The position numbers were made by a program, and so were the translations under genes. A stretch of DNA of 59,010 bases, the filler included, from Sphacelaria rigidula (taxonomy: Eukaryota), in assembly GCA_964200075.2 (NCBI GenBank). It is 7 parts of 7 records of this genome, joined end to end, with 100 filler letters (N's around TTAATTAATTAA, not from the genome) between each part and the next. Parts side by side here need not be neighbours in the genome. Positions count along the whole stretch, not along the records: positions 33,781 to 42,124 come from CAXNAA020011446.1; 6 more parts are not named here. One strand, written 5' to 3'. Positions 34,096 through 54,149 of the stretch are shown here, piece by piece. The notes under the pieces are model-generated. The model was given only the letters and a program-made list of their open reading frames with translations, had not been told where the DNA came from and ran no database searches. Numbering within the stretch: position 1 is the stretch's first letter; the number at the start of each line of letters is the position of its first letter.

Positions 34096-34529
34096 GGTTG
34101 CCCACCGTACCACACAGTTCCGTCGCTGAACCCTTCCATGAAGGAAGATGCGTAAGTTTTCGCTAACAAAAAATATAAAGGATACAAAATAATTGCAGTG
34201 TATCTATTTATCTCTGGGCTCAACTTGTGCTGTATGCTGCAGGGTTGCGTTGGTAGTTGAGAATGAGTTGGATGGAGTTCGCATGGTCCTGTGAACAGGT
34301 ATCATCTGGCGTGGTACTTTGTAAGATAGGAGTCAAGTGCCGCTTCGTGCCTTTCGTCCGCATGCTTTCTATCGAACATGATTAATGTTTTTTTTGTCAA
34401 ATAATTTTTCTGTGCGCGCCGCTAATTACAATTTCGAGTTAAAGCCTTCAAGGAACATAAGTGCGGTGAACCTATTAAAGAGGCAAACAAAAAATAACCA
34501 ACGGACGTTTTCGACCGACAAAAAAAACG

Positions 34530-34755
34530 TGCCACGACTCACGCCCTGTGGAAAGCCCCTAGCACGTTATTTTTCGGTCGAAAATATGCGGGTGACAAGG
34601 AAAACTTCGATCTGACAGGTCGTTATTATTAAACTATCGAAAGGACGATAGTTGAAATCACGACCTGTCAGATCGGATTTTCTTTTCGTTTTTCACGGCA
34701 CTTTTCGATCGAAAAATAATGTGCTAAGACACGCCCTCACCGCCGAGGCGTGGCA
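34530..34755. repeat. Imperfect ~110-bp-arm inverted repeat
   Basis: GATCTGACAGGTCGT...AACTATCG, loop AAAGGA, CGATAGTT...ACGACCTGTCAGATC; outer TAGCAC.TTATTTTTCG.TCGAAAA also mirrored. Confidence 0.8.
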
Positions 34756-34866
34756 ATGCTGTTAGATCCCCAGCGCCACATCGTCGAGGGATGAGGGTTA
34801 GTGAGCTTCACAAAAAGTTGCTCATGAAGGGGCATGACATATACTCCAGTTAGCATTGTTACAGGA

Positions 34867-35684
34867 TGTGACGGTTTAAGAGACAACCAACTAGACTACT
34901 AACTAGTCAGCGCTGACTAGTCAGTGCTGGCTGATCAGTAGTCTAGTTGGTTGTCTCTTAAACCGTCACAAAATGTCAACCGTAACAAAAGTTAGTCGTG
35001 GGGGTTCGATCCCCGTCACTTTCACTCCGAGGAGGGCGACTCCCCTTGCCAACGCTCTATCGGCTGTGATCAGGACCTCTAATGTTGTCGCTTTCACGGT
35101 ACCCTTGAGTAACTCGTCTCCCCCACTCATTTCCAGAGTGTGAGCACTGGGGTCCTTAGCAGTATACTCCGAACATAGCCACCAGGCTATACCCCACCCT
35201 TTTTCTTAGGGCCAATTTTTTACTGAGGATTTCTCTCCTGGGTCACTGATTGGCCAGTAGTCTAGTTGGTTGTCTCTTAGACCGTCACAAAAGTTTGTCG
35301 CTGGTTCGATTCCCGTCGATCGCACTTTCTTTGAAGAAAAAAGAGGAGAGAAAATCTCTGTAAAAAATCGGCCCTAAGAAAAAGGGTGGGGTATAGCCTG
35401 GTGGCTATGTTTGGAGTATACTGCTAAGGACTCCAGTGTTTACACTCTAGAAATGAGTGGGGAGACGAGTAACTCAAGGGTACCGTGAAAGCGACAACAT
35501 TTGAGGTCCTGATTGCAGTCGATAGAGCGCTGGCAAGGGGAGTCGCCCTCTTCGGAGTGAAAGTGACGGGGATCGAAACCCCATGACTAATTTTTGTGAC
35601 GGTTCGAGAGACAACCAACTAGACTACTAACCAGTCAGCGCTGACTGGTCAGCAGTCTAGTTGGTTGTCTCTCGAACCGTCACA
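34867..35684. mobile_element. Fold-back element made of two inverted tRNA-headed SINE-like units with terminal hairpins
   Basis: Arms 34867-35239 and 35344-35684 are reverse complements. A box TAGTCTAGTTGG and B box GGTTCGATCCC are present. Termini TGTGACGG...CCGTCACA are flanked by AGGA on both sides. Confidence 0.85.
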
Positions 35685-36315
35685 AGGATCTCACCCGAAC
35701 CAGAAGCGCCACCCACTACTGTAGTGAGTCAGTAGTCGTACCCTGCTGTCTCACGCTGATGTCGATTGACCCGTATAATGTCTCAAGGACCCTCAATGAA
35801 TTGTCGACTCAGGTGGAGGAGACAGCTTCTACGCATAAGCAGGGAGGTGTGAGACCGGTAGGCCGTTCATTGTGCCTCGACATCGCGCACAAGGCGCGTG
35901 CGTCATAATTCTTCGTGCATAAACATGGCTAGCTGTGCACGCACGCTAAACCCTTGGAAATTGTCATGATGATGATCGCGCAACCAGTACGCGCACTATG
36001 GCGTAAACCCGAATATGTGCCGAGTGTGGCTATGCTGTTGGCGCCCCGCCTTCGCTAGGCAGATACAACTTAGACTCACTGAACTCCCACTCGCCCGGTC
36101 AACTATGGTAGGCGTATATCTCTTGTCGGATCCTATATGAGCATCCACGACGAGAATGATCACGTGAAGTGGACCAGACTGATGCCGCGATAGCCCCCCC
36201 CCGCATCACTCATCACTCCAAAAACGCGACCAAAGCACTGGCGATACAAGGCATTGAGCTGGTTTCAGACACCCCGAACCGCCTCATCATGTGGACGGCA
36301 TTGGCGAAAAGAATC

Positions 36316-36560
36316 TGTAACGAAATTACACCGTTACGTTGAGTTGATAGTAATTATCTAAATAATGACCGGGGGGCACGGGGGTTCCGGAGGATTCTGG
36401 GACGATTCTGGATAATGGCCGGGGACACGGGGATGATACCCTGCGGGTCTATAAGGCTGTGCGTGCAAGATCACTCCGGATAATGAAATGTTGTGAAGTC
36501 TGACAACTGAAACTGAGGCCAGTGAGACTGGGAGTCCCTCAACAGCAGTGATCCAACAGT
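36316..36560 (+). mobile_element. Probable 5' LTR of the Gypsy element (3' boundary uncertain)
   Basis: Starts TGTAACG; TATA-like TCTATAAG at ~36448; lies directly upstream of gag. No matching 3' LTR in the contig. Confidence 0.4.
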
Positions 36561-36699
36561 TCTTCTACTGGCTGGCGCCACAGTGTCGATACAAGTGCTA
36601 GAGCTAGTGCCTGGCGAAATCTGCTGGAAGAATTTCGACGGAAGAGCCTGGTAGCTGGGAACAACCTGATTCACCACGGACGCGTGGAGGGTGTTCAAG

Positions 36700-50667: not shown

Positions 50668-51073
50668 CTATTGCCCATATCACGCACATCGAGAACGCCT
50701 TCCATTTAAGCGACTAATATCCGCCGTCACAGGCCCTCCACACCGACCACGTTTCGAAATTTTTCTCGTACCCGCTTCTCGTGCTGGCGTTAACTGGCGC
50801 GTGGGCTAGTATTTCTACTAGCTTCGCAACGCCCTTCTCGTCTCTGGCGGGGCCTCCCTTTTGTCCTGCGAGAGTATCACGAGTTCAGCGCGGGTTCAGT
50901 CTGCTTGTCGGGACATTATGTTCCAGATCTGTGCATCTAGGCTGTGGTCCAGGGGTCTTTTTTGCAGAATCAATTCGAGTATCTCTCTGCCTCGATTTCC
51001 TAGCTCTAGCCGCTTCCAATTGAGATTTCCTGTCAACGGTGCTACCCTCTCGGCCACCTCCGACTCCGGCCAT
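50668..51073 (-). pseudogene. 5' end of the tyrosine recombinase ORF, overlapping the RNase H end
   Basis: The frame of ORF 51073-50885 continues past a stop into VNASTRSGYEKNFETWSVWR, the STxxxYxxxWxxW N-terminus typical of DIRS/Ngaro YR; truncated by the contig end. Confidence 0.6.
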
Positions 51074-53188
51074 CTCGAGATGCCGTCTGCTAGCTCGTTT
51101 TCAACGCCAGGTATGTGTTTCGCTATAGTACACCACCCGGTGGCGACTTCCATGCGGCCCGTCATTCGCATCAGGAGGGCGGCGCGTCTGTCTTTTGATC
51201 CCCGGCATTTATTTACCCAGTGTACAGCCGACGAGTTGTCGCCGCGCATCAGGATAGGATCCCCTCTCTCTGTGGGCCTTTCGCCCTGAAACATTTGGAT
51301 TGCGCAGGCGGTCATGAACATTCCACACAGTTCTAGAAGATTGATAGTGATCGCGCAGCTTTCTCTTTTTTTGCTCTTCAGTTCGCATGTGAGCTCATGG
51401 GGTAAAGAGTACCGCCAGAATAGCCCGAGCTCTGGGCAGTACCCGCCCACCGCTGCCAGGCTCGCGTCGGAGATGTATCCACGAGATGCGGTGCGTTTTG
51501 TGTGGGCAAAGAATGGAGCGCTAAGCGATTGCCCGCGATGCACCAGGTTCTCCGCGATAGCCCATTTCCAAAAGGCGATATCCTCGTGAAACTCCCAGCC
51601 AAGGTTCACTGTTCGTCTCACCTTACGTTTCTTTTTCGCGGCTACGTGTAGGTTGGCGAGACGTTGTAGTTGCCACACAAAGTATTTCCCGGGTCTTACA
51701 ACGAACGTGAGGTTCCAGAGTTTTCCAGCTATGCTAAGTACGTCTTGCGCGGTCGTGCGTGTCTTGCCCGCGGGCCAGTCGCGCTCCAGCGAATCTTTGA
51801 TAGCTTCGACCTTTTCTCGAGTGACCGCTATCCGCATGGTGTGCGTGTCGATCGTGAATCCCAACGAATCTACGCTGGTGTCCCAGTTTGTATTTTTGTT
51901 AGGTGCAAGGATGGGTATCTCACCCGGCTCTCCGGGACCAAATAGGCTGATGTGATCTGAGGCTAGCGAAGCTGACGCGACTAGCGCCGATTTATCTTGC
52001 GCGCCGTGCTGTACCCTTGCAAGGATATAGCCGTCCACATACACGCTAAAGAAAAAGGGGTCGTGGAATCCCCCCCCGGTTGCTGGGGGAATGGCAGCAT
52101 CGGGCGGGACCTTTGTAGGTGTCCCTTCTGCCCAGGGCTCGACTATGGTCGTGTGTTTCATCATCTCCCTACCTTCGTCGAGTATTACGGCGTCGAGTAT
52201 TGTGGTATTGCAGTGTTCATGTTCAGTAGCCTGTGATAAGAGTCCCCAGTGGCCGGGGGACCCCGTCCATCCAAACGTGAGCCGAAAGTCTGCTACTGTA
52301 ACGTCGTCTACCACGTAGCAGCAGTTTTGCGCCTGGTCGAGCGCGATCCTGACATATCTTAATGCATTCGAGATATCCGCCTTTGACAGTAGGATTCTAC
52401 TATCCGGAAACTTGACACGTAACCTCAGGACTTCATTCAGTAGTTTTGGGAGTGCCTCTCCGCAGAGGCATTGTGGCACCTCGTCCACAATCGTGTCCCG
52501 GTTGAGACCGCCTTTTTCTCCCTTCGATCCGCTCGGGTCAAACGAAAAATCGTTGATAATCCTGACTAGTTACTACTGCCCCAAGGGGGGCCACTCTGAG
52601 GCCGCTGATTTCAAGCGCCGCCCCTTTTTCAAACACCAGGCATCTGTTTCTTTGTACATCCTCAATCAACTTCTCCCAGACTTGAGGCATGTGTTCTTTG
52701 ATACTGCGGTGATTACCGTATTTCAGTGCTCCTCGAAGATCGGGAACGCTAGGCGATGTGCTCATTGGTACTCCGTACTCAATCATGTGCAGAAGTTCTC
52801 GTATCCGAGGGAAGTGTTTTTGGTTTGCGAAATACTCGTGGAGGTCTCTCAGGTTCATCGGCGTTGACACCAGAGTGCCGTCGAGCCCCTTCGCTACATC
52901 TCCGATTCTTCCATGGTTGAGTCGGACGAGACTCGTGCAGGTGGCGGCTAGGTCTGTGATCATGCGTTTCATTTCTGTTAGGTCTATGTGTGTATTCGAG
53001 AGTTTTTTCTGTTGCTGTTTCCACCGGGTATTGAGGTTTTTGCTTGTGTGGTCTGTGTGTCCGGTTGGGCTTCGGTGGCGTGTGGTCCCAACTGGAGGTG
53101 AGATTCTCACCGACCCGAATTTTCGCCTACCGATGATCTCCTTACTATCGGTGCTGTTCTTTTTCTCTGCTGGCTTCTCACTCGTCAA
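50896..53188 (-). mobile_element. DIRS/Ngaro-type RT-RNase H (frameshifted, catalytic YVDD changed to YVDG)
   Basis: NHRSIKEH...APLGAVV, frameshift, IINDFSF, SKADISNA, LTFGWTGSPGHW, YVDG (52030-52041), SLGFTIDT, ISDAS...GGY, INLLEL, GDNSSAV.WVN, HIPGVENELADGISR. Confidence 0.9.
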
Positions 53189-54149
53189 CGTGTGCGAGCC
53201 GTTGTCTGGGGTTACTTGTGTGTAACTATAATCAACGGTTTTGCGTTAGTGCACCGGGTGCTGTTTTGAACTCGTGCACGCTTTGCGCTCGTCAACATGG
53301 ACGTGCCGTTGTCCAGGGTTCCCTCGGAACGGCCAGACAACGGGTCTTCTTCTGCACCTCTATGTTCCTTTGCTCCCCTGAAGTCACAGGTTATCGAGGT
53401 TGCACGCTTTGCGCTCGTCCACATGGACGTGCCGTTGTTCAGGGATCCCTCGGAACTGCCGAACGCCGGGTCTTCTTCTGCATTGGGTGTGATTCGAATT
53501 TCACGGGGAGCGTGAGTTCTGTTATTGTCTGATCTCCCGACGTTCAGGGTTACCTGTGCGTAACTGCCGACCGCCGGATCTGCTTCTACATGTCTCCTGT
53601 CTGTGGGGATGTGCGAAGTGGTGTTGGCGTGGTGTCTGCGTGTACTACTGTTGTTTTCGTTAGTCATGGACGGGCGGATTACCTGATCTTGTTGCTGACT
53701 TACCTGTGCGCGTTCGTGCTTTCCGTTGTACCTCAATATCGACCGATTACAGTGATCGTGCGGGCCGTCGATCGTGTGATTGTTGTTTTTCGTGTCATTG
53801 CGCAGGGCGGTGATCTCGTCGAGTATTTCATGCATGTGAGCTCTACCATCCAATCTAGTGTACCCTGCCGGCCTTTGCTTGTTACAGTACGTCTTGATGG
53901 GGTTGGTCATGGAAGTTTTTTTCGGTTGTGGGAAATGCGGAATGGAACTACGTGGTCTACCGCTGTGACGCGCATATGGTTTGTTACGTGCGTTGGTACT
54001 TCTGCTTTCACCGTGAAAGAAGCTTGCCGCCACCGACCCCGGTTGGGGGGCCTGGGCGATACCCACCGACCTCGCTGAGTCCATGACCGGTGTTCCTCCT
54101 CCCCCCAGACTGGTAGGCCCCGCCGACTGGCGGAGCCCGCACCCTCAGG

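Follow-up and report, generated by a model that had tools for sequence, protein, structure and literature searches.

The window is a 59,010-nucleotide stretch (filler included) of the genome of Sphacelaria rigidula (GCA_964200075.2), joined from seven parts (contigs of ~8.35 kb, separated by N spacers). Sequence inspection places in it an element of 818 bp (34867–35684; positions 1087–1904 of contig C11446) that starts with TGTGACGG, finishes with CCGTCACA and has AGGA on both sides (Table 1), as an earlier note on this DNA had stated; the A-box and B-box motifs reported there are also present. The element consists, in order, of a palindrome, the inverted 3′ half of an interior, a half palindrome, the full interior and a second palindrome, with a third tRNA-like head in its middle (35246–35317, + strand). 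What had been described as ~34-nt caps are ~45-nt arms of a 90-bp palindrome, enlarged to 104 bp on the left by a central duplication of 14 bp, and the inward-pointing units, thought to be two SINEs placed tail-to-tail, represent the same half of one ~487-bp element in opposite orientations (34988–35238 is a fold-back copy of 35345–35594). A decayed Gypsy copy lies further right; its 5′ LTR is followed by RNase H and a gag zinc knuckle, and the copy extends at least as far as ~41400.

Table 1. Features of the 818-bp copy and of the nearby Gypsy copy (positions in the window)
Feature	Position	Strand	Remarks
Left 4-bp target site duplication (TSD), AGGA	34863–34866	.	Sequence inspection
Left palindromic terminal repeat	34867–34970	.	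104 bp (90 bp in the family); A-box-like motif at 34939–34950
Partial duplication of the repeat's inner end	34971–34987	+	17 bp; private to this copy
Inverted duplicate of the interior's 3′ part	34988–35238	-	Segment b, then core; B-box-like motif in segment b at 35003–35013
Half palindrome (inner arm, U5-like)	35246–35289	+	Starts at the palindrome centre; A box at 35258–35269
Interior start (segment a)	35290–35344	+	B box at 35303–35313 plus purine tract; proposed self-priming site directly behind the LTR's CA
Non-coding core	35345–35546	+	Internal CAGCGCTG-like motif, also found in sister families
Interior end (b′)	35547–35594	+	Complementary to segment a; finishes in a T run (35591–35595) at the right LTR edge; may serve as primer and as Pol III terminator
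Right palindromic terminal repeat	35595–35684	.	90 bp; TGTGACG...CGTCACA
Right 4-bp TSD, AGGA	35685–35688	.	Sequence inspection
5′ LTR of decayed Gypsy copy	36316–36582	+	~267 bp

The 818-bp form, previously taken for the mobile unit, is instead a fold-back derivative of a family that is, as claimed, non-coding. The basic unit measures 487 bp (family A) or 470 bp (subfamily B), and its ends are identical and perfectly palindromic (90 and 88 bp, respectively); in family A, two copies of the palindrome enclose an interior of ~307 bp. The A and B hairpins differ at ~10 sites per arm, and each of these changes has its mirror image in the other three arms. Both have kept the 16-bp centre, the A-box consensus and the interior start, and they hardly differ in segment a and in the final ~70 nt of the interior. 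A DNA search of the genome gave 640 candidates, 40 of which were scored, and the exact 30-mer of the arm occurs 227 times. We grouped 224 loci (the best or first listed, and thus biased to intact ends) into 198 distinct clusters, of which 86 are two-ended.

Tabulation of these copies bears out the fixed TGT/ACA boundary and the 4-bp duplications: the TSD is exact in 51 of the 86 two-ended copies (permutation mean 1.7, maximum 9), matches at 3 of 4 bp in 15 and at fewer in 20, and no two-ended copy has an exact TSD of 5 or 6 bp. Exact TSDs occur in solo repeats (15/24), simple units (16/26) and other forms (20/36; i.e. tandem units, rearranged units and units with internal duplication). Tandem arrays have one palindrome in common between units, and two of them (L021 and L201) carry a TSD. 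The target site is about TGN[GRYC]NCA. No joint that removes the element was found among 15 joints listed of 77. Contig C9142 was considered as a 6.6-kb autonomous copy and rejected, as it seems to carry two truncated hairpin insertions that are unrelated to each other. By eye, nothing obvious unites the few copies whose interior has a different sequence. In five copies (L010, L022, L028, L164 and L368) the hairpin is interrupted at a TTAA-like site, and three of these (L010, L164 and L368) hold the same ~130-bp insert with CCCTT...AAGGG ends, which we take to be a piggyBac-like MITE.

The family thus has two direct terminal repeats (TG...CA, left repeat identical to right), a length below 1 kb, no coding sequence, a TSD (4 bp) in the 4–6-bp range, solo LTRs and tandem arrays, all of which are traits of TRIMs. 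It also has an identifiable autonomous LTR partner. The earlier note had suggested searching for an autonomous element with the same terminus, and the resident Gypsy family (964 candidates, 40 scored) has LTRs of ~267 bp that start with TGTGACG and finish with CGTCACA, i.e. with 7-bp ends identical to those of the element. RNase H precedes integrase in this family, which is the Gypsy order. Among its six two-LTR copies, the 4-bp TSD is exact in three, matches at 3 of 4 bp in two and at 2 of 4 bp in one; the solo LTRs L258, L261 and L268 have an exact 4-bp TSD and L256 matches at 3 of 4. Scored on the target matrix of the element, 49 Gypsy flanks reach 1.72, close to the 1.66 of the element's own 276 ends (random −1.68 ± 0.30), and the two target profiles correlate at r = 0.80, this being the sole LTR family compared and a bias that other Gypsy families may share. 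Beyond the termini, the first 60 BLAST matches listed include no similarity between the element and the Gypsy loci. Complete Gypsy families of Ectocarpus have 4-bp TSDs and Copia families 5-bp TSDs (PMC12477816, supplement file 1).

The termini, the 4-bp TSD and the target profile common to both families point to an LTR role for the palindromes, in an element of TRIM-like kind. The element is thus very probably a non-autonomous LTR retroelement with a perfect ~90-bp palindromic LTR, mobilized in trans by the resident Gypsy family, and the identity of this helper is well supported for families A and B. The earlier claims of fixed ends, of 4-bp TSDs throughout the family and of insertion by a retroviral-type integrase hold; as helper, an LTR retrotransposon seems to fit better than Ginger, which had also been named. 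The Gypsy family itself (window 36582–36593; L219–L278 and L339–L344) has no tRNA-type primer site, and its polypurine tract (PPT) is a short G run. From the last A of its LTR runs a 12-nt palindrome, AATATCGATATT, which is perfect in 10 of 26 junctions and degenerate in the window copy, and which is possibly a non-tRNA priming site or a dimer site.

A generic tRNA-loop pattern gave 25 matches, and the 15 examined all belong to three further families, C, D and E (L345–L378). These have palindromes of ~78 bp with TGTTA...TAACA ends that share the central CAGYCAGCGCTGRCTG; the A box is canonical, and AAAG and a B box follow the left repeat. They are older elements with the same layout. Their TSD looks 5 bp long (two exact, 7/18 at 4 or more of 5 bp, null 0.66, with imperfect end calling), which hints at 5 bp as the probable length. 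On the A/B target matrix their flanks score low (−0.73, 37 ends), which suggests another helper, probably Copia. In the layout common to all five families, the LTR edge divides a tRNA-type promoter and the two ends of the interior can form a duplex; neither a tRNA primer site nor a polypurine tract beside the right LTR was found. Together they make up a real, ordered group of families, a variant of the Pol III TRIM kind. A conserved motif (35515–35575 in the window) lies ~40–70 nt before the 3′ end in the five families and consists of a CAGCGCTG-like octamer (equal to the palindrome centre), a short GGG/CCC hairpin and GG(G/A)GT(G/A)A; several rearranged copies are joined at its equivalent. 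A separate tRNA-headed, SINE-like repeat was also found (L346:1470–1900; L121), and a family-C copy appears to be inserted in one.

In A and B units the A box lies inside the LTR and the B box ~14 nt outside, and both boxes are conserved in the five families. In families A and C the LTR end falls at the anticodon-loop position, with the same distance of 24 nt from the T of the A box upstream but with different end letters. An ARAGORN scan of the window gave no tRNA. Among 67 tRNAs, those that scored best with the heads of the 818-bp copy were Asp(GTC) tRNAs, most of them organellar; over 10 heads of the five families compared with 25 tRNAs from non-organellar contigs, Asp is only 9th of 12 isotypes, and no isotype is favoured across families (12 nuclear isotypes, from an incomplete tRNA set). 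A tRNA-Asp origin of the element end was therefore rejected. The terminal letters match the resident Gypsy LTR ends at 7/7 positions and read TAACA in the three sister families, which suggests that they follow the helper integrase and not the Asp anticodon. Of the idea that the termini were carved from a tRNA-Asp anticodon arm, the position within a tRNA-like sequence survives and the Asp origin does not. Convergent promoters, likewise, do not seem to be part of the design: in the inspected full copies of C, D and E just one end carries a B box, and in A and B the additional one is the complement of the terminal duplex described below. A tRNA-derived SINE would have a 5′ head, a body, a simple-repeat tail and a variable TSD but no terminal repeats; the element instead has fixed TGT/ACA ends and a 4-bp TSD. 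The assembly also contains one plastid-sized contig (C1, 131.8 kb) and two different tRNA-rich contigs of ~38–45 kb (C5 and C13), each of the three with its own tRNA-Asp, so that two mitochondrial-type genomes are possibly present (C5 and C13).

Behind the 5′ LTR no tRNA primer binding site (PBS) was found, i.e. no TGG start and no perfect complement longer than 7 nt among the 67 tRNAs of the incomplete set. No PPT adjoins the right LTR; the preceding sequence is pyrimidine-rich, with purine runs of at least 10 lying over 200 nt upstream. The last 12 nt of the interior pair with the 12 nt that begin at the last A of the left LTR, and the 3′ side of this duplex ends in TTTT (T4), the last T being the first base of the right LTR. 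At least 11 of 12 pairs form in 13 of 16 copies from the five families; T4 stands at the right LTR edge in 13/16, and the duplex partner, picked by best match, lies at that edge, within about a base, in 16/16. Duplex positions 6–12 vary between families while pairing is kept (compensatory changes), with energies of −24.8 kcal/mol for same-family and −14.3 kcal/mol for cross-family pairs.

Relying on these findings, we propose the following cycle. Pol III would start near the palindrome centre, directed by the A box within the LTR and the B box just outside, and would stop at the TTTT abutting the right LTR. The RNA 3′ end would then form a ~12-bp duplex with the sequence that immediately follows the CA of the left LTR, priming without a tRNA, and its extension would proceed to the TG end. 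The strong-stop DNA could either fold back at its self-complementary centre or transfer to read-through RNA; both routes would rebuild full LTRs, and the Gypsy integrase would insert the product with a 4-bp TSD. Given a Gypsy-mobilized TRIM, we lean slightly towards a Pol III RNA that self-primes reverse transcription, and a Gypsy-mobilized palindromic-LTR TRIM that primes on its own RNA is, as a whole, a reasonably probable explanation. The helper's primer region has the same geometry as that of the element, namely a 12-nt palindrome from the LTR's last A. A broader reading, offered tentatively and at somewhat less than an even chance, is that at least five families form an undescribed class of LTR-machinery parasites without tRNA primer, PPT or R region, in which (i) the Pol III transcript primes via its 3′ oligo-U end; (ii) the palindromic LTR lets the cDNA fold back; (iii) the LTR edge sits at the anticodon-loop position, with letters re-tuned to the helper integrases (Gypsy 4-bp, probably Copia 5-bp); and (iv) the helper Gypsy may itself prime through its 12-nt palindrome. 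If true, this would add the RNA's own 3′ end to tRNAs and the own 5′ end as ways to prime LTR-type reverse transcription, and would show how an LTR parasite can arise from a tRNA or SINE-like promoter. The predicted RNA of the element would be ~350 nt long, a size that makes the self-priming model directly testable in vitro.

Several observations fit less comfortably. Among the 33 tRNA terminators of the genome, 6 have T4, 22 have T5 or more and 5 have none; T4 is the weak end of this range and is probably leaky. A T4–T6 run lies ~45 nt inside the interior of all five family-C and all three family-E copies examined; it should stop Pol III early and counts against self-priming. In 23 A/B copies, T4 runs number 3 in sense and 82 in antisense; this asymmetry was rejected as proof of Pol III, since composition alone explains it (P = 0.72–0.82). 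In 23 elements, variants shared directly between left and right number 6 in U3 and 11 in U5 (null ~1.2), mostly from L328 and L191; inverted sharing is weak (4 and 4; null 1.65 and 1.13), and intra-hairpin sharing reaches 11 and 9 (null ~1.6). A separate count finds intra-hairpin sharing at 31 of 276 variant sites (null 6.2 ± 2.2), and 55 of 108 hairpin breakpoints fall at positions 41–55. Intra-hairpin sharing and central breakpoints fit fold-back but also DNA-level palindrome repair or instability. Direct sharing agrees with LTR transfer of the ordinary kind, from read-through RNA. A strict one-arm-makes-four model is contradicted by the direct sharing and by left–right differences, with inverted sharing weak.

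These data leave some room for a Gypsy-mobilized TRIM with ordinary strand transfers, in which transcription continues into the right LTR, priming relies on an outside molecule (helper RNA, or a fragment of a tRNA missing from the set) or on a piece that the RNase H of the reverse transcriptase cuts from the long panhandle, and the palindrome is kept by DNA-level conversion. The asymmetric variants of L328 and L191, the leaky T4, the internal T runs in C and E, and the local homogenization of arms shown by intra-hairpin sharing all speak for it. It leaves unexplained, however, why the interior 3′ end is complementary to the site behind the LTR in five families and why TTTT stands exactly at the LTR edge, and it has to do without a PPT next to the right LTR; we regard it as unlikely.

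Less likely still is a Ginger-like MITE, a DNA transposon with ~120-bp terminal inverted repeats (TIRs) whose outer 90 bp are palindromic and for which a solo hairpin would be a minimal MITE. In its favour, the inverted ends are long and both PBS and PPT are lacking, and the element's TGTNR ends, 4-bp TSD and inverted repeat length (40–270 bp) agree with Ginger1 and Ginger2 as far as the accessible part of their description goes, where they also encode a transposase (PMC2836005). Neither solo repeats nor palindromic ends nor Pol III boxes are mentioned in that part. The target of the element, on the other hand, resembles that of the resident Gypsy and not CCGG/CCGT (Ginger1) or RTATAY (Ginger2); no longer transposase-bearing element with A/B ends occurs among the 198 clusters of an assembly that is fragmented at hairpins; conserved Pol III boxes and a terminator are unneeded for DNA transposition; and the curated Ectocarpus table contains no autonomous Ginger. 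We therefore consider the Ginger reading improbable and retain the Gypsy-mobilized TRIM.

For the 818-bp copy itself, the fold-back lies far beyond chance (z = −57 against 20 shuffles). Its two long arms have 8 private variants in common over 260 columns, as against a mean of 1.7–2.1 and a maximum of 5 in 56 other copies, which indicates that one arm is a fold-back copy of the other; the arms also differ at 19/260 sites and are thus not a collapsed duplicate. Contigs of public runs X1 (possibly the source sample) and X3 contain both junctions without a single difference, and the right junction also occurs in run X4. Our analysis suggests that the copy probably arose by an aberrant fold-back or template switch that left its ends and TSD intact; long dsRNA from it is plausible. 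A chance pile-up of SINE insertions or a misassembly has in its favour that the short-read assembly breaks at hairpins (many matches lie at contig ends) and that no public contig among those listed crosses the 818-bp interior, but it is refuted for the family by the fixed ends and TSDs in 51/86 copies and is, for this copy, extremely improbable given the junctions in other runs, the differences between the arms and similar inverted forms elsewhere (L002, L003, L012 and L292).

The autonomous Tf1/Sushi, Tcn1 and TAR elements prime with the cleaved 5′ end of their RNA, in contrast to the 3′ end proposed as primer for the S. rigidula element. Their reverse transcription is described as self-primed by their own RNA without a tRNA in the accessible part of PMC6317226. 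The closest known kind, judging from the consulted sections of Kojima 2024 (PMC10886601), is Helenus/TRIMp3, which likewise is <1 kb and non-coding, with two LTRs and with A and B boxes that derive from a tRNA but belong to no functional one; it, too, occurs as solo LTRs and in tandem arrays. According to those sections, Helenus TSDs are 4 bp with Gypsy and 5 bp with Copia helpers, a tRNA-like sequence not complementary to the PBS lies within the LTR, a tRNA PBS and a PPT are present, and the group is known from fungi, animals and plants only. The S. rigidula element differs in its perfectly palindromic LTR, its interior ends that pair with each other, the lack of any PBS or PPT found, and a promoter split by the LTR edge where Helenus has both boxes inside the LTR; it is the PBS, the PPT and the box positions that keep us from filing it as Helenus. 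Cassandra and Ajax, in the same sections (PMC10886601), are non-autonomous LTR elements that also have a Pol III promoter, here 5S-derived, and use a tRNA primer; the Cassandra RNA has an R region of 18 nt and ends within the 3′ LTR. Retrozymes, so far as the consulted portion of PMC4918200 describes them, are non-coding with a 4-bp TSD and have only short terminal boxes in common with Gypsy helpers, as does our element among the first 60 matches listed, and their RNA intermediate is unusual, as that of our element is proposed to be; they carry a tRNA-Met PBS, a PPT and hammerhead ribozymes. Rfam assigns the element to no family at the gathering score, and hence no hammerhead ribozyme to its LTR; the matches were all sub-threshold, mostly to miRNA-like hairpins.

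The curated Ectocarpus table (PMC12477816) lists no palindromic-end family, and a motif search of five of its supplement files, which may not include the consensus sequences, was negative. Among the titles and abstracts that searches of the open literature listed, none describes a palindromic-LTR TRIM and none a palindromic primer binding site; an earlier deposition in Repbase or Dfam under another name is possible. If the proposed reading is true, one element would join TIR-like with LTR-like architecture. Elements of this sort could easily be filed by mistake under SINEs, miRNA hairpins or Ginger MITEs, and they break short-read assemblies. An exact-pattern scan gave no match in viral or metagenome contigs. 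Among the listed public runs containing element sequence, algal and marine ones included, none is recorded as RNA; run X6, RNA by guess only, holds short element pieces.

Two other features of the window were noted. On the minus strand, 50896–54144 contains long open reading frames that by eye resemble the reverse transcriptase and RNase H of a DIRS/Ngaro-type element, one of them (556 aa) with no Pfam match at 1e-3. An abundant repeat of high depth with nested inverted repeats lies at 34508–34740, just left of the element, and at L062 a hairpin is inserted in this same repeat.
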